NCBI GenBank assembly: GCA_964360585.1
Contig: CAYHXC010000001.1
Span: 21,907-85,906, forward strand
DNA from: an uncultured Candidatus Saccharibacteria bacterium
GTDB taxonomy: Bacteria; Patescibacteriota; Minisyncoccia; UBA6257; 2-01-FULL-56-20
DNA length: 64,000 nucleotides
Direction of reading: 5' to 3'
The notes beneath the pieces are model-generated. The model ran no database searches, had not been told where the DNA came from, and saw nothing but the letters and a program-made list of their open reading frames with translations. The position numbers were made by a program, and so were the translations under genes. Shown in pieces: positions 16,162 through 58,589 of the stretch. Positions within the stretch are counted from its first letter, which is position 1, and each line of letters starts with the position of its first letter.

Positions 16162-17184
16162 ATGCGTTTACCAGCAGAATGGGAATCTCACGAATGTACG
16201 TGGATGGGCTGGCCTCACCAGAAGAAGGGTTGGCCAGGACGATTTCAGGAAATGAAGTACGTCTTCGGACTCATGGCCTTTATTCTCACGAGACAGTGCG
16301 GAGAAAAAATTAGAATTCTGGTTCTCGATTCGGACCATAAAACAGAAGCTGAACGGATACTGAAAAGCATGGATGCTGATCTTGACATGATCTCCTTCCA
16401 TGCGATCGAAACCGATCGTTCCTGGCTGCGAGATACAGCACCAATCTTCGTCGAAGATCAGGAAAGGAAACTCGTTGGTCTTGACTTCCTCTTCAACGGT
16501 TGGAATAGGTATTCCAATTTCCAACTGGATAATGCCGCCAAAATCCAGATAGCGAAGATTGCCCAAGCGATCCACCGCGAACCACGACTTGGAAGCCAGC
16601 GGGTTATCCTCGAAGGCGGCGCGATTGATGTCAATGAAAGAAGCGCCCTCCTCACCACCGAAGAATGCCTCTTGGCGGGAAAAACGGCGCGACATCCCGA
16701 CTGGACGAAAGATCAGTGGGAAGTAGTCTTCGAAACCTACTTTGGCACAACGGAAACCATCTGGCTGAAGTTCGGCATTCGAGGCGACGATACTGGAGGA
16801 CACATTGATGATCTGGCGCGTTTTACCAGCGCTGATCAGATCGTTACACTCGATCCGAAGTCAGCTAAACATGAGCAGGATTTCCACGCTCTCACAGCTA
16901 ATCTGGAAGTCCTATCCAATACCGTGTACAACATCGTGAAGCTTCCAATGCCTGATCCGGTGATCTACCAAGGACAACAACTGCCTGCGAGCTACTGCAA
17001 TTTCTACATCGGTAATGAGGCGGTGATTGTTCCGGTCTTCAACGACCCGAATGATTACATTGCTCTGGGAATCCTGACGGAAATCTTCGATGAGCGCCGG
17101 GTAATTCCGTTCGATTGTCGAGCGCTCGTATGGGGCTACGGCGCAGTCCACTGCGCCTTGATGCAGCAACCGAAAATTATCTGA
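16162..17184 (+). CDS. aguA: Agmatine deiminase / Porphyromonas-type peptidyl-arginine deiminase family
   Basis: Start taken at MRLPAEWESHECTWMGWPH, preceded by aaagga. C-terminal GAVHCALMQQ is the catalytic Cys motif of AguA. Confidence 0.7.
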   Translation: MRLPAEWESHECTWMGWPHQKKGWPGRFQEMKYVFGLMAFILTRQCGEKIRILVLDSDHKTEAERILKSMDADLDMISFHAIETDRSWLRDTAPIFVEDQERKLVGLDFLFNGWNRYSNFQLDNAAKIQIAKIAQAIHREPRLGSQRVILEGGAIDVNERSALLTTEECLLAGKTARHPDWTKDQWEVVFETYFGTTETIWLKFGIRGDDTGGHIDDLARFTSADQIVTLDPKSAKHEQDFHALTANLEVLSNTVYNIVKLPMPDPVIYQGQQLPASYCNFYIGNEAVIVPVFNDPNDYIALGILTEIFDERRVIPFDCRALVWGYGAVHCALMQQPKII

Positions 17185-17191
17185 CGTTCCA

Positions 17192-17222
17192 AGCGACTTT
17201 AATACGGTCGCTTTTTTATTTT
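17192..17222 (+). terminator. Terminator hairpin (agcgac tttaatacg gtcgct + T-run)
   Basis: Directly after the aguA stop. Confidence 0.5.
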
Positions 17223-17242
17223 CTCTATATTACCAAAACAAA

Positions 17243-17268
17243 ACACCGGCTTTCGCCGGTGTTTTGCA
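17243..17268. terminator. Bidirectional terminator (aaaacaccggc tttc gccggtgtttt)
   Basis: 11-bp perfect stem. It lies just 3' of the rnpB P1 3' strand on the minus strand. Confidence 0.6.
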
Positions 17269-17292
17269 GTCATTCTATAAGCGGGATTCTGT

Positions 17293-17389
17293 CCCCCTGT
17301 CCTTAATCGTGAATCAGAGATTTCCTTCCTATGACCAATCAACTTAATTTTATTGACTGGCTCTCCATTCAAGACTAAGGACAGGGGGG
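17293..17389. mobile_element. Internally deleted derivative of the GIY-YIG element (14-bp TIR CCCCCTGTCCTTAA / TTAAGGACAGGGGG), inserted between the P2 and P4 3' strands of rnpB
   Basis: Same TIR as the pair flanking the GIY-YIG ORF at 17998-18282. The ends are similar (CCUUAGUC... / ...CGAUUAAGG). Only a ~9-codon ORF remains. Confidence 0.45.
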
Positions 17390-17530
17390 ACGATCATTTA
17401 TCTGGGCCGGCGATTACTCGCCGGCTCAAGTCCTTCGACTTCGCTCAGGATAAACCCAACTGAAATCGATGAGACTATGCGGCACAAACCAATGCTCCGC
17501 ATTGGAAATACAAAAGAAATCATAAACTCG

Positions 17531-17638
17531 AAGCACGAAACTCGAAACAATACTGAATGTCCAAAGTTCAAAGGTTTGAAACATTGGGAATTTGTTCGCC
17601 AGTTGGCGAATTGTTTCGGATTTCGATATTCGGATTTC
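17531..17638. repeat. IVS-like stem-loop inside rnpB, homologous to the stem flanking the four-helix-bundle cassette at 19720-20175
   Basis: Arms cgaagcacgaaactcgaaaca and tgtttcggatttcgatattcgg pair with each other. Both arms match the flanks at 19720-19750 and 20145-20172. Confidence 0.4.
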
Positions 17639-17997
17639 AAATTTCATCTTGTGCTTCCCAGTGCGAAGCACTGGAGTACGACCTTGCACTCAAGTAAGGA
17701 TTTAGCCGTTTCACCCTTCGACTTCGCTCAGGGTAAACCCTTCGATTTTACTCGAAAGCCCCAAGTTTATATGAAGGATCACCCCACTTCGCATAAAGCT
17801 CCGCGGGGCGGTTATATCCTTGCGGATATAACCGTCTCTGCTCGCACCTCTATCCTTCCCTTCAACTACGTTCAGGACTAGTAATCCTGAGTTACATCGA
17901 AGGATTGCGGACGGTGGCCGTTAACCACTACCGACTACGAAACTCTTTTAAGGATTAATCAGTCTTAAAAGAATCCCGTGAGTGTCCCGACTTTCCT

Positions 17998-18282
17998 CCC
18001 CCTGCCCTTAATCTTCGTTACTCGCCACAATACGTTTCTTTAATTCGCCGTAAGCTGTACTGAATTTTTTGAGCTGTCTTTCTCGTTTCTGAGCATCAGA
18101 CTTTTCGAGATAAGCTTCGTAATAAATCAGTACCCAGGGTTCTCGATATCTTGTTGCCGGAGATAAACCATTCTGATGCTCAGTAAATCTCCTTCGCAAA
18201 TTATCCGTACAACCAATGTACAGCTTACGATCTTTTTTACTTTTCAAAACGTACGTGTAGAACATCGACTAAGGGCGGGGGG
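17998..18282. mobile_element. GIY-YIG endonuclease element bounded by 14-bp inverted repeats, occupying the P3 position of rnpB
   Basis: TIR tccccctgcccttaa (17998-18011) and ctaagggcgggggg (18269-18282). The ORF start lies 3 nt inside one repeat and the stop codon lies within the other. Confidence 0.5.
18008..18265 (-). CDS. GIY-YIG nuclease family protein (small standalone, YhbQ/UPF0213-like)
   Basis: 85 aa, MFYTYVLKSKKDRKLYIGCTDNLRRRFTEHQNG...KSDAQKRERQLKK. Contains the GIY...YIG motif, the conserved Arg, and the Glu of the catalytic core. Confidence 0.75.
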   Translation of the reverse strand: MFYTYVLKSKKDRKLYIGCTDNLRRRFTEHQNGLSPATRYREPWVLIYYEAYLEKSDAQKRERQLKKFSTAYGELKKRIVASNED

Positions 18283-18344
18283 CGATCGTCCGAATGACCA
18301 TTTAATAGTCTAACATTTTCACACTTTTGTCAATCCAAGAGAAA

Positions 18345-18370
18345 TAAAAAAGCCAGGAGATGTCTCCTGG
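18345..18370 (-). terminator. Terminator hairpin (agccaggagacatctcctggct) downstream of the 18377..19057 gene
   Basis: 10-bp perfect stem flanked by A/T runs. Confidence 0.55.
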
Positions 18371-18376
18371 CTTGAG

Positions 18377-19057
18377 CTACTGAAAAGTCTTCTGAATTGC
18401 GAGGTTGCCCCCATATCCCATGGGGAAGCTGATATAGGCTTCCGGGAGTAGTGAAAATCCTTTGCCAAGTGGAACTTGCAAACCACCGCTCACTTTCCCT
18501 CCGGGTAAGGCTTGATGGAAATCTTTACTCATTGGCTGACTCGTACCAGCGGCTCCGCCTTCACCCACCGAGACATCGCCACTGAAACCACCTTCAACAT
18601 CAAATCCACCTACACCGATCCGAAAAACGAAGGCTAACTGTCGCCACAGTCTCAAGGTCACTTCAGGACCAATAGTCCCTCCGATCATCCGAGCTTTTGT
18701 TCTTCCTTCGGCTTTTCCGTCGGGAAAAGGAGAGTACTTGGCCGCTGTTTCCCTATCCTTCCACGCCCCATCCCCCGAGACACTGCCGTAGGAAGCTTCA
18801 ACAACTCCGGCTAGGGCCCACCAGTTTCCCTGGAGCACGTAGGCTTTCACTCGAACCGAAGCCGAGTACCCCGACATCGTCGGATACTCATCAATCTTTG
18901 CGATGTCGAAGAACCAGTTAGGGATTTGATTCCACGAGGCATCGATCCCAACACTGAATCTCCCTCCGGCAATCCGTTCCACAACTTGGTTACTGTCCGC
19001 GTGAGCTTGCGAGGAGAGCAAGGCAACCATCAGCCCAACCACCAACCATTGCTTCAT
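18377..19057 (-). CDS. Hypothetical secreted Gly-rich protein with signal peptide (possible beta-barrel/porin-like), GC-rich
   Basis: 226 aa. Signal peptide MKQWLVVGLMVALLSSQAHA, alternating Gly/aromatic pattern, C-terminal aromatic residue. GC content is clearly above the window average. Confidence 0.4.
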   Translation of the reverse strand: MKQWLVVGLMVALLSSQAHADSNQVVERIAGGRFSVGIDASWNQIPNWFFDIAKIDEYPTMSGYSASVRVKAYVLQGNWWALAGVVEASYGSVSGDGAWKDRETAAKYSPFPDGKAEGRTKARMIGGTIGPEVTLRLWRQLAFVFRIGVGGFDVEGGFSGDVSVGEGGAAGTSQPMSKDFHQALPGGKVSGGLQVPLGKGFSLLPEAYISFPMGYGGNLAIQKTFQ

Positions 19058-19719: not shown

Positions 19720-20175
19720 CGAAATACTAATATCGAAATCCGAAACAATGTTTAAATTCATAAATTCAAATATCATTTTGATTTCTGCAAGATAGCTCCA
19801 AAAATCATCATTAATTCAGTTGATTCTTGGACTAAATCATTCCACTCTTTGACAAGAATAGTATCTATCTGAGTTTCTAACAAATTCAGCCAATATCTGC
19901 TTTCTTTTGCTTCTTTTCGAGAAATTTTAATACGCATCAAAAAATCTTTCTTGCTTAAAGCCTCATTCGCCTCTATATAGTTTGCACCAACAGATCCCGA
20001 AGAACGAACTAATTGCTTAATATCATCAATACTGGCAATACCTTTCGGCAGCTTCTTAACAAAACTTCTTACTTGTTTTGCAAAATCAAATGTTCTTTTC
20101 TCAAGATCATATTGTTTTGTATTTCGTACTTCGCTCATTTGAATTTGTTTCGATTTTCGTGCTTCGAATTTCGTA
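19720..20175. mobile_element. IVS-like stem-loop cassette carrying a four-helix-bundle gene
   Basis: Flanks cgaaatactaatatcgaaatccgaaacaatg (19720-19750) and tgtttcgattttcgtgcttcgaatttcg (20145-20172) are mutually complementary. Both are homologous to the stem inside rnpB (17531-17638). Confidence 0.4.
19773..20138 (-). CDS. Four-helix-bundle protein (23S rRNA intervening-sequence protein family, TIGR02436-like)
   Basis: 121 aa, ...GSVGANYIEANEALSKKDFLMRIKISRKEAKESRYWL... is the family signature. Confidence 0.75.
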   Translation of the reverse strand: MSEVRNTKQYDLEKRTFDFAKQVRSFVKKLPKGIASIDDIKQLVRSSGSVGANYIEANEALSKKDFLMRIKISRKEAKESRYWLNLLETQIDTILVKEWNDLVQESTELMMIFGAILQKSK

Positions 20176-57126: not shown

Positions 57127-58224
57127 TTACTGTGAAAGGCCTTGGCTAATGGTGTATATCGGCGTGATGATCGAAAGCGCCACGAAACCAACCACGATAC
57201 CCATGACAAGCAGAATAAGCGGCTCAAGCAACACGGTGACATTTTTTAATGATGTCTCGACTTCTTCCGAATAGTAATTAGCTAAATAGGACAAGTTCTC
57301 TTCGAGATTTCCGGTATTCTCCCCTACCTCAACCATAGCCGAGAGAATGGGTGGAAATATTTTTTTCTTCTTCATGAGATACTCGGAGAAAGCGCTGCCT
57401 TTTTTAATTTCTTCAGCCGCTTCTTTCAAGGCCACCTCATATACTTTATTTTCAAAGGTGTTGCTGACAATAAGAATCGATTCGACAATTTTGATGCCGC
57501 TCCGTAAAAGGATGGCGAGAATGCGACTCATATTCGTAACGTTCACATAAATGGCGAGCGAAGAAATAACCGGAAGCATCAGTATAAAATGATCGAAGAC
57601 CAACTTGACGGGCGGAAGGCGAAGAAGTGCTCGCCAAGCAACTACGATCATAATGACGAGTCCGATGACCAACCACCAGTAGCTACTAATGAATCCGAGA
57701 ACGGCGATCAGTATGCGGGTAGCAAGCGGTAACTCAACATCAAAGTTAGTAAATGTAGGCAGGAGTTTTGGAAAAACAAAGAAGGCCAAGAAACCGCTCA
57801 CGCCCATCGTCATCACGAAAAGAATGGCGGGATAGACCATGGCCGAGCGGACCTTGTTTCGCAGATCCTTGGACTTCTTCAGTTCTTCGGCGAGATAGAG
57901 CAGATTCGGCCCCAATGTTCCGCTCCGCTCACCAACCTCAACGACGCTGATAAAAAAGTCGCCGAAGATTCTGTGAAAACGGCGCAAACTGCCGGCCATC
58001 GTCTGGCCGTTATTCACATCTAAAATCAGCTGATCAATAATGATCTGAAATTTCTTGGTGGTCGTCTGACGACGCAAAATTTTCAAACTTTCAAAGAGCG
58101 GCAAACCGGCTTTAACCATAATCGCCAGATGTCGCGCGAAGTTGATCTTTTCCTGAATTGGAACACGCCCCCGAACGATCGGCGTGTGTCCGAGTTTCAC
58201 CGGATCTTTTTTAAAAAGAATCAT
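57127..58224 (-). CDS. pilC: Type IV pilus assembly platform protein PilC (GspF family)
   Basis: 365 aa, two GspF repeats, 3 TM helices. Confidence 0.8.
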   Translation of the reverse strand: MILFKKDPVKLGHTPIVRGRVPIQEKINFARHLAIMVKAGLPLFESLKILRRQTTTKKFQIIIDQLILDVNNGQTMAGSLRRFHRIFGDFFISVVEVGERSGTLGPNLLYLAEELKKSKDLRNKVRSAMVYPAILFVMTMGVSGFLAFFVFPKLLPTFTNFDVELPLATRILIAVLGFISSYWWLVIGLVIMIVVAWRALLRLPPVKLVFDHFILMLPVISSLAIYVNVTNMSRILAILLRSGIKIVESILIVSNTFENKVYEVALKEAAEEIKKGSAFSEYLMKKKKIFPPILSAMVEVGENTGNLEENLSYLANYYSEEVETSLKNVTVLLEPLILLVMGIVVGFVALSIITPIYTISQGLSQ

Positions 58225-58450
58225 TTATCCTCCAAACTTTTTGTAATTTTTTAATACACGTAGCAAATAATTTTTCCCCCCAACCAGATTTCAAAAATTT
58301 CTCTCTTAAAGCGGCGTCGTGCTTATTTAAATACGACTCAATATAAATCAATTTAAAAGGACGTCTAGACTGGGTGGAAAAAACTTTTCCAGAATTATGC
58401 ATAATAAGTCGTCGCTTTAAATTATTAGAACCCATCTTAAAAATAGGCAC
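58211..58450 (-). pseudogene. GIY-YIG nuclease remnant (N-terminal motif region replaced by MITE-B sequence)
   Basis: Residues ...NNLKRRLIMHNSGK...RRPFKLIYIESYLNKHDAALREKFLKSGW align with the middle and C-terminal parts of YhbQ-like GIY-YIG proteins. The first 8 codons are encoded by the MITE TIR. Confidence 0.4.
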
Positions 58451-58589
58451 AGGGGTATTCCGTGATAGATTCGAGCGAGAACCATCCGACCCGAGACAGG
58501 AATACCCTATGGTATTTCAAGGAGGGTCGGGTGGGTTTATAGCCGAATCTAGCCGGAAGACTGCGTGATTCTATTTTTGAGATGGGTTC
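58429..58589. mobile_element. MITE-like element, family B copy (inverted orientation relative to 36871-37032)
   Basis: Reverse complement of copy 1 with the same 18-bp TIRs. Sits between pilB and pilC and overlaps the GIY-YIG remnant. Confidence 0.55.

Follow-up and report, generated by a model that had tools for sequence, protein, structure and literature searches.

The window analyzed here is a 64-kb stretch (64,000 nt) of a Patescibacteria (candidate phyla radiation, CPR) metagenome-assembled genome (MAG) from Hainich groundwater. Within it, the gene for the RNase P RNA (rnpB) carries at helix P3 a short open reading frame (ORF) for a GIY-YIG nuclease, framed by inverted repeats, and a second hairpin without an ORF is located further downstream in the same gene. 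The best explanation of the pair is that P3 of rnpB harbors a selfish GIY-YIG cassette, bounded by repeats and co-transcribed with its host, whose ORF-less partner is at P19; we hold this reading with a probability of about 0.75. Under this reading, an essential ribozyme gene holds a selfish protein-coding gene within one helix and in the same transcription unit. An earlier note, made from the letters of the stretch, had proposed a small mobile GIY-YIG element with 14-bp terminal inverted repeats that targets structured RNA genes.

The RNase P RNA gene and its two hairpins

The rnpB gene, of class A, was placed on the minus strand from position 18299 to approximately 17266 (all features below are on this strand unless stated otherwise). 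At ~1,034 nt it contains several insertions and is ~2.8 times the length of the 367-position Rfam model (RF00010). At Rfam gathering thresholds only one tRNA was recovered from the window. When the 1.2-kb "intergenic" region was scanned with permissive thresholds, an RF00010 match of 18.8 bits was obtained, far under the gathering threshold of 100 bits, because ~650 nt of the gene are insertions; threshold-based annotation would therefore miss it. The 3' half of the model accounts for the match: P18, J18/2, the P2 3' strand and CR-V align cleanly, and the ORF-less hairpin falls as an insertion between the P2 3' strand and CR-V. Manual and scripted searches recovered the motifs of P1, P2, P4, the S-domain and P18, and given that they occur in order together with the Rfam match, the interval was assigned to rnpB. 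The gene also aligns with the rnpB genes of related loci, which score 164-304 bits. The earlier note was thus correct in placing the repeats in a structured RNA but left the host gene unnamed; it is rnpB, with hairpins at P3 and P19.

The P1 5' strand (GGUCAUUC, 18299-18292) and the P2 5' strand (GGACGAUCG, 18291-18283) open the gene (18283-18299). P1 is closed by pairing of GGUCAUUC with GAAUGACU (17275-17268), and P2 by pairing of the GGACGAUCG / GGACGAUC strand with GAUCGUCC (within 17388-17430). The CR-I / P4 5' strand (AGGAAAGUCGGGA, 17985-17997) pairs with UCCCGCUU at 17277-17292, so that the P4 pseudoknot of CR-I (GAGGAAAGUC...) with CR-V (ACAGAAnCCnGCUUA) is present and includes the canonical bulged U (AAG(U)CGGGA at 17997-17985 with UCCCGCUU). 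The S-domain core (17694-17850) consists of GAGGUGCGAGCAGAGACGG (17850-17832), the P12 hairpin (17833-17810) and GUGAAACGGCUAAAUCCUUAC (17713-17694), and its 20-mer is common to more than 120 mostly CPR rnpB loci. The P18 hairpin, J18/2 and the P2 3' strand (CUUGAGCCGGCGAGUAAUCGCCGGCCCAGAUAAAUGAUCGUCC) follow at 17388-17430 with high posterior probability in the Rfam alignment. The gene closes at 17268-17292 with the CR-V / P4 3' strand (ACAGAAUCCCGCUUAU, 17292-17277) and the P1 3' strand (17275-17268).

The ORF-bearing hairpin (element A, 17998-18282, 285 bp), delimited by its inverted repeats and flanks, occupies helix P3. Its arms lie exactly at both P3 strands, between P2 and CR-I GGAAAGUC: the 5' arm in RNA sense (CCCCCCGCCCUUAGUC, 18267-18282) doubles as the P3 5' strand and the 3' arm (GAUUAAGGGCAGGGGG, 17998-18013) as the P3 3' strand. 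After the 3' arm there is one A and then CR-I GGAAAGUCGGGA, and the same right flank, A-GGAAAGUC (P4), is found in six related loci (L004, L005, L007, L067, L142 and L144; loci are cited by L numbers throughout). The arms are 16 nt each and 88% complementary. The GIY-YIG ORF has its ATG (18265-18263) 1 nt inside the 16-nt arm, and its TAA stop (18010-18008) forms part of the opposite arm, which bears out the earlier description of a gene framed by inverted repeats with its stop in one arm and its start near the other. Two details of that description did not hold. The hairpin is not perfect, since in RNA sense the stem has one C.A mismatch and one G.U pair, and the left repeat had been given a start at 17998 while the 15-letter string quoted for it begins at 17997. 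In the transcript the arms of element A can pair into a stem that resembles P3 and is capped by the ORF, and the P1/P2/P4 core is undisturbed by this pairing. In the predicted minimum-free-energy fold of the P1-P4 segment, the stem is closed around the ORF (z = -5.45).

The ORF-less hairpin (element B, 17293-17388) is located, by the Rfam alignment and its fold, at J2/4, the position of P19, a helix that is optional in RNase P RNA. Its 22-nt arms (17367-17388 and 17293-17314) are 91% complementary and enclose a 52-nt loop; its predicted RNA fold has a free energy of -53.3 kcal/mol (z = -8.0). The proposal that these repeats would fold as RNA hairpins is thus borne out by prediction for both elements. 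The second, ORF-less repeat pair had also been recognized correctly, with near-identical arms. The outer 16-17 nt of the arms match those of element A at 94% and 88%, and an asymmetric G.U position (...UUAGUC / GAUUAA...) is common to both pairs, which indicates that A and B are same-orientation copies. In the window, the 14-mer was found five times with at most two mismatches, compared with 0.51 occurrences expected, and none of 100 shuffles reached five. When the interiors of A and B were compared, no similarity was found: the arms alone match. The alignment of the two copies that had been suggested as a check therefore succeeded over the outer arms and nowhere beyond them, and of the claim that B is an internally deleted, MITE-like derivative, the ORF-less, MITE-like character and the matching arms stand while the internal deletion is unproven.

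The ORF of element A (18008-18265) encodes 85 aa with a single UPF0213/SLX1-like nuclease domain (Pfam PF01541, E = 1.5e-16, 60.9 bits vs a cutoff of 22.6). The catalytic-type residues Y3, Y5, Y16, G18, R26, H30 and E62 were invariant across 60 sequences. The predicted structure (pLDDT 91.5) has the GIY-YIG fold, and its best fold matches were UPF0213 proteins and the SLX1 nuclease domain (TM 0.58-0.66, 22-33% identity), with I-TevI and UvrC far behind; 1YWL and 1ZG2 were its relatives in the Protein Data Bank (PDB) by sequence. The protein is under purifying selection (pN 0.15-0.35 with pS saturated; dN/dS ~0.1-0.2 where estimable). It is the only product of the cassette, which has no partner DDE, HUH or serine/tyrosine transposase, and no promoter of the cassette's own was detected. 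The cassette-in-rnpB arrangement was identical across three independent assemblies, which rules out an assembly artifact.

Related cassettes inside and outside rnpB

In order to place the cassette among relatives, rnpB loci were collected from 596 Gb of genome contigs by using the conserved S-domain 20-mer, and a metagenome scan with an alignment of rnpB-associated GIY-YIG proteins added 80 further loci. The arm itself was unsuited to an exact database-wide search (by our estimate, chance alone would yield hundreds of occurrences of a 16-mer in 596 Gb). Framing of an ORF was scored as an inverted-repeat score of at least 10, with displaced and shuffled sequences as controls. By this measure 55 of 92 distinct related ORFs were framed, compared with 0 of 91 displaced and 1 of 92 shuffled controls. 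The outer arms share the consensus (A/T)CCCCCAC(A)CC... / ...GG(T)GTGGGGG(T/A). Across the family the stop codon is usually inside the right arm, typically as its first three bases, and the ATG is at or just past the end of the left arm.

An ORF was present in 4 of the 120 rnpB loci retrieved with the 20-mer, and such hairpins in 6 of 105 CPR rnpB loci. Within rnpB, the cassette was found in P3 in nine lineages (the window, L004, L005, L007, L067, L082, L117, L142 and L144), in P15/L15 in four (L062, L151, L160 and L187), and in the S-domain in L153 (RF00010 304.5 bits) and L163 (245 bits), where the Rfam matches span the ORF. It also occurs inside 16S rRNA genes (L170 and L212) and directly 5' of tRNA-Ala and tRNA-Val genes. 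The proposed targeting of structured RNA genes is not exclusive: about half of the repeat-framed relatives are located in short spacers between co-oriented protein genes. In every RNA-gene context the cassette has the orientation of its host RNA gene, and elsewhere it has that of 48 of 50 flanking genes.

Several loci show the cassette at alternative positions. In L062, P3 is a short native hairpin and the ORF is in P15/L15 instead; its arms (CCCCCACCACUUUUAC / GUAAAAGUGGUGGGGG) equal those of both the P3 cassette and the ORF-less L15 hairpin of L007. L15 is empty in L067 and L082. In the rnpB gene of the window, an extended stem-loop takes the place of a native terminal loop at P3 and again at the position of P19. 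The L179 contig carries two ORF-bearing copies (67-397 and 1024-1354) that are 97.6% identical over 331 nt and have unrelated flanks. Each sits exactly at a TATG|...|ATGA gene junction, where the upstream stop and downstream start are preserved. The L082 ORF is frameshifted and is a decayed pseudogene. Given these different sites, the near-identical copies on one contig and the decay, the cassette family is shown, on sequence grounds, to be mobile on an evolutionary scale. The earlier proposal of a small mobile GIY-YIG element is thereby upheld, with terminal repeats of ~14-16 bp and the same unit in rnpB helices, 16S rRNA, tRNA flanks and spacers, in addition to the two L179 copies.

Hairpins that lack an ORF but bear the arms of the ORF copy resident at the same locus were found in approximately nine loci: the window (P19), L007 (L15), L082 (just past the P4 5' strand), L144 (L15), L151 (two), L160, L165, L182 and L187. 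The rnpB gene of L151 (1426-2078) carries three copies, namely a 97-nt ORF-less hairpin that forms P3, a 99-nt ORF-less hairpin after the P4 5' strand, and an ORF-bearing cassette in P15/L15; its two ORF-less hairpins are ~92% alike over 39 nt. Such hairpins behave like miniature inverted-repeat transposable elements (MITEs) that share only the terminal repeats with their autonomous partner.

Flanking sequences differed among contexts. At tRNA-Ala and tRNA-Val genes, direct repeats of 10-11 nt equal to tRNA nucleotides 1-10 (e.g., GGGCCTATAG) flank the cassettes of L147, L159, L181, L183 and L191 (~1780-2090 in each), and the right arm runs, by its G-run, straight into the 5' end of the tRNA. 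In no other context is there so clear a likeness to a target-site duplication: the L179 copies have ATG(A) at their flanks, and no duplication was seen at rnpB or at most spacer sites. A scan of viral contigs returned only four distant relatives and no sign of phage carriage.

The closest relatives of the window's cassette share its whole locus order: RNase H gene, promoter, P1-P2, C-rich arm, ATG...stop, G-rich arm, A-GGAAAGUCC and the remaining rnpB. The RF00010 match starts directly after the ORF stop in L007 (164 bits, above the gathering score), L005 (43.6 bits) and L004 (33.9 bits). The closest GIY-YIG proteins are 72%, 74% and 62-63% identical to that of the window, and in the same three loci the neighboring RNase H protein is 68%, 65% and 56% identical.

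The window holds one further GIY-YIG gene (58214-58516), a remnant without its first ~19 residues (tblastn 44% identity; HMM E = 4.6e-19). It has an inverted-repeat score of 5 and no framing repeat. The earlier note had listed a GIY-YIG remnant at 58211-58450, invaded by a different MITE, as the third such gene of the stretch. Its status as a remnant is confirmed, the truncation being N-terminal; its number is not, as a six-frame HMM search of the window found only two GIY-YIG genes. Where the 5' end of this remnant would be, there is a hairpin of another kind (AACCCACCCGACCC...GGGUCGGAUGGUU, ~58478-58537).

Two more distant relatives have other surroundings. In L131 (~1880-2420), a GIY-YIG gene is located between two copies of a tRNA 5' fragment, each split by a GC hairpin, upstream of the intact tRNA. 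In L135 (~700-1080), a GC-rich palindrome is present in direct copies on either side of the GIY-YIG gene, and a 23S_rRNA_IVP gene comes before it.

Proposed mechanism and alternative explanations

The following mechanism is proposed for the cassette. Its ORF would be expressed by read-through from the host promoter, here that of rnpB. At the DNA level the repeats would provide a hairpin or cruciform (or short homology) for a structure-selective nuclease, resulting in copying of the cassette or mobilization of repeat-only partners. Given that SLX1, one of the nearest fold matches of the protein, is a structure-selective nuclease for branched DNA, the probable substrate is either a structure extruded by the repeats (hairpin or cruciform) or a hairpin of the repeat-only kind that may serve as an acceptor site, and host repair would then copy the cassette. 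At the RNA level, pairing of the arms would make insertion into the loops of structured RNAs tolerable, and loops of highly transcribed structured RNAs may be the places where insertions persist best, since there the arms would close on each other in the transcript. Cleavage of the stem may also release a near-leaderless mRNA. We suggest, tentatively and at less than even odds, that these cassettes represent a previously unrecognized class of bacterial mobile element, ~290 bp in length, with a single-domain SLX1/UPF0213-like GIY-YIG nuclease as the sole gene and 13-21-bp C-run/G-run repeats that have both DNA and RNA roles, riding the strongest promoters.

Several observations weigh against a mobile cassette or against parts of this mechanism. 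The GIY-YIG protein diverges in step with its RNase H neighbor, and this parallel divergence indicates long vertical residence of the P3 copy rather than recent movement, so that in this lineage it seems to be an old insertion passed on vertically. No allele with an empty P3 was found for the lineage, there being none close enough among the 120 rnpB genome loci. Within the 64-kb window there are just two hairpins and one remnant GIY-YIG gene, which leaves spread within this genome unproven. Across the family, the ORF-less copies have no internal similarity to the ORF-bearing copies and share their arms only, and the 12-nt flanks revealed no consistent target-site duplication or target motif. 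The 85-aa protein is a single domain without a DNA-binding domain, and no transposition chemistry is known for GIY-YIG alone. No Shine-Dalgarno sequence was found upstream of the ORF and its ATG abuts the stem, which makes translation of the ORF hard to account for. Finally, pairing of the arms is almost wholly Watson-Crick (27 mismatches in 874 positions), sense-strand G.U (6) was not in excess of A.C (10), and selection for the RNA helix as such is therefore undemonstrated. The comparison of stems argues instead that the repeats are maintained at the DNA level, the RNA helix being a by-product exploited by selection among insertion sites.

An additional possibility, compatible with a mobile cassette, is that the hairpins behave as intervening sequences. 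In 23S rRNA, intervening sequences, some of which contain an ORF (PF05635, "23S_rRNA_IVP"), are removed by RNase III without religation. By analogy, RNase III or an enzyme like it would cleave the stems at P3 and P19, the RNase P RNA would work as paired fragments, and the excised loop would be a near-leaderless mRNA. The anatomy is that of the 23S rRNA elements, with an extended stem in place of the terminal loop of a stable RNA, and an ATG 0-4 nt from the stem without a Shine-Dalgarno sequence fits a transcript released in this way. Relatives of the cassette are found inside 16S rRNA, and GIY-YIG insertions that are not introns are known from CPR rRNA genes (PMC11270868). For RNase III, however, a stem of 16 bp that includes a mismatch is on the short side, and extensions of P3 may be tolerated uncut; we regard such processing as possible but rather unlikely.

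A more conservative account treats the arms as native rnpB helices and the ORF as an ancient, domesticated resident of P3 (such as a factor for RNA or DNA processing expressed along with RNase P), with the likeness of P3 and P19 due to intragenic gene conversion and with no mobility. The conserved synteny from RNase H to rnpB with its ORF, the co-divergence of the GIY-YIG and RNase H proteins and the strong purifying selection would all be expected, and native CPR P3 stems likewise start with CCCC and end with GGGG. This account does not extend to the AT-rich intergenic spacers that have no relation to rnpB and yet show the same C-run/G-run arms around the ORF, to the 97.6%-identical L179 copies at different gene junctions, or to L062, where the ORF is in P15/L15 while P3 is a short native hairpin. 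The patchy distribution (6 of 105 rnpB loci) and the L082 pseudogene also speak against domestication. We consider it improbable and largely refuted by the copies outside rnpB. Improbable to a still greater degree is a classical homing endonuclease gene in a self-splicing group I or II intron within rnpB. GIY-YIG is a classic family of intron-encoded endonucleases, a weak TIGR01453 match was obtained (23.8 bits vs a cutoff of 56), and group I introns are common in CPR tRNA and rRNA genes (PMC13011429, PMC11270868). On the other hand, related copies occupy many non-homologous sites, the flanks consist of just a 16-bp stem, and the protein has no DNA-binding domain and a fold nearer SLX1/UPF0213 than I-TevI. 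A group I or II intron was rejected when no intron family was found at E ≤ 10 in 17150-18400. The shortness of the repeats might finally suggest that an ordinary small gene happens to be enclosed by a chance stem, or that the assembly is at fault. That explanation is refuted by the number of repeats (5 vs 0.51), the fold scores of both hairpins (z = -8.0 and -5.45), the framing of 55 of 92 ORFs against 0-1 in controls, and the three identical assemblies.

Other features of the locus and comparison with known systems

A putative rnpB promoter with a -35 box TTGACA (18328-18333) and a weak -10 box (TAGACT or GACTAT) was read from the sequence. A strict sigma-70 consensus scan found no rnpB promoter in the window; the promoter was inferred at the TTGACA box because this is conserved in relatives, and TTGACA followed by a 17-nt spacer and TAGGAT or TATAAT is present in L007, L067 and L082. 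The terminator of the upstream gene is at 18373-18350. A terminator-like hairpin (AAAACACCGGCGAAAGCCGGUGUUUUGUUUU, 17235-17265) is located 3' of rnpB and has a perfect 12-bp stem (12/12 complementary; 17266-17239).

Further insertions were found within the gene. A 49-nt hairpin is inserted in the S-domain (17856-17904; alignment columns 422-470, with an inverted repeat) and is absent in L004 and L005. By alignment and inverted-repeat search, the P15-P17 region is expanded by ~250 nt (17431-17681) and has its own 36-nt inverted repeat (17516-17551 / 17610-17645; 72%) that is not of the C-run type and is possibly a different hairpin insertion. A 26-nt motif (CCTTCGACTTCGCTCAGGRTAAACCC; GGGUUUAYCCUGAGCGAAGUCGAAGG on the RNA strand) recurs in the S-domain and P15 region (17432-17457, 17715-17740 and 17859-17884, with an inverted copy at 17884-17904). 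It was also found in the L15 region of an unrelated CPR rnpB (L102) and looks like another small repeat family colonizing rnpB. On the plus strand, a 134-aa ORF without a Pfam match (17477-17881) lies antisense to the rnpB S-domain; it is a gene call in the public assembly (L001, 3385-3789) and almost certainly a spurious one. A 23S_rRNA_IVP (PF05635) gene is located at 19773-20138, 1.5 kb from rnpB. This family has also been reported inside CPR rRNA insertions (PMC11270868).

The identification of the gene accounts for two annotation errors, namely a lone "GIY-YIG protein" and a spurious antisense ORF called where rnpB lies. CPR RNase P RNAs often score below Rfam thresholds and have large helix extensions, for which no ORFs were mentioned (Lui et al. 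2021, PMC8172020), and the cassette offers an explanation for "missing" or sub-threshold RNase P RNA in many CPR genomes (PMC8172020). The occupied sites also map positions of the RNase P RNA that tolerate large insertions: P3, just past the P4 5' strand, P9/P12, L15 and P19. The combination of repeats, a single-domain nuclease and repeat-only partners suggests a mobility mechanism undescribed for GIY-YIG enzymes, and the orphan UPF0213 family thereby gains a testable role.

Among known systems, the best sequence and fold matches of the cassette protein are SLX1 and the YhbQ-like UPF0213 proteins (PDB 6SEH, 7CQ2, 1ZG2 and 1YWL). The substrates of SLX1 are branched or structured DNA, as would suit a nuclease whose partners are repeats that form hairpins, but it needs SLX4 and carries a RING domain; UPF0213 has no assigned function or reported mobility. 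With the homing endonucleases I-TevI and T4 Seg, the cassette shares the PF01541 superfamily, a selfish lifestyle and a cycle of gain, decay and loss (the L082 pseudogene). Those enzymes bind DNA through a large dedicated domain, home to one cognate site and lack terminal inverted repeats, whereas the cassette protein is a single 85-aa domain with a fold nearer SLX1/UPF0213, and its gene is found at many unrelated sites.

Terminal inverted repeats common to ORF-bearing and ORF-less copies, as seen here, are a feature of transposons and their MITEs. REP/RAYT systems, Correia elements and Rickettsia palindromic elements are likewise short palindromes that genes can tolerate and that form folded RNA, and a RAYT gene is similarly flanked by the repeats on which its protein presumably acts, with ORF-less copies sharing the ends only. 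Where the partner enzyme of these systems is known, it is a transposase of the HUH/Y1 or DDE kind and not a GIY-YIG protein. As in the intervening sequences of 23S rRNA, an extended stem-loop replaces the loop of a helix, some loops carry an ORF and the host RNA is functional; here, however, the host RNA and the protein are different, and intervening sequences are not known as repeat-bounded cassettes at sites outside RNA genes.

In the open-access literature, no report was found of GIY-YIG in a bacterial rnpB, of the repeat architecture or of ORF-less partners; for RNase P RNA together with GIY-YIG, only papers on fungal and algal organelle genomes turned up, and nothing relevant was found on GIY-YIG with terminal inverted repeats or with an intervening sequence or hairpin, or on UPF0213/YhbQ. 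The nearest precedent comes from Tsurumaki et al. 2024 (PMC11270868, crediting the observation to its reference 2), who reported that the CPR rRNA insertions coding for GIY-YIG proteins belong neither to the group I nor to the group II introns. Inverted repeats, hairpins, RNase P, ORF-less partners and copies in protein-gene spacers are not mentioned there. Those insertions and the cassette have in common a CPR host, a GIY-YIG ORF in a structural RNA gene without an intron, and scattered, non-conserved sites at the tops or bases of stem-loops, and relatives of the cassette (L170 and L212) are themselves in 16S rRNA; the host gene here, in contrast, is rnpB and not rRNA. GIY-YIG insertions of a non-intron kind in CPR structural RNA genes are therefore already known, and what is new, relative to the open-access literature, is their residence in rnpB at several helices, the repeat and hairpin architecture, the repeat-only partners and the copies outside RNA genes.

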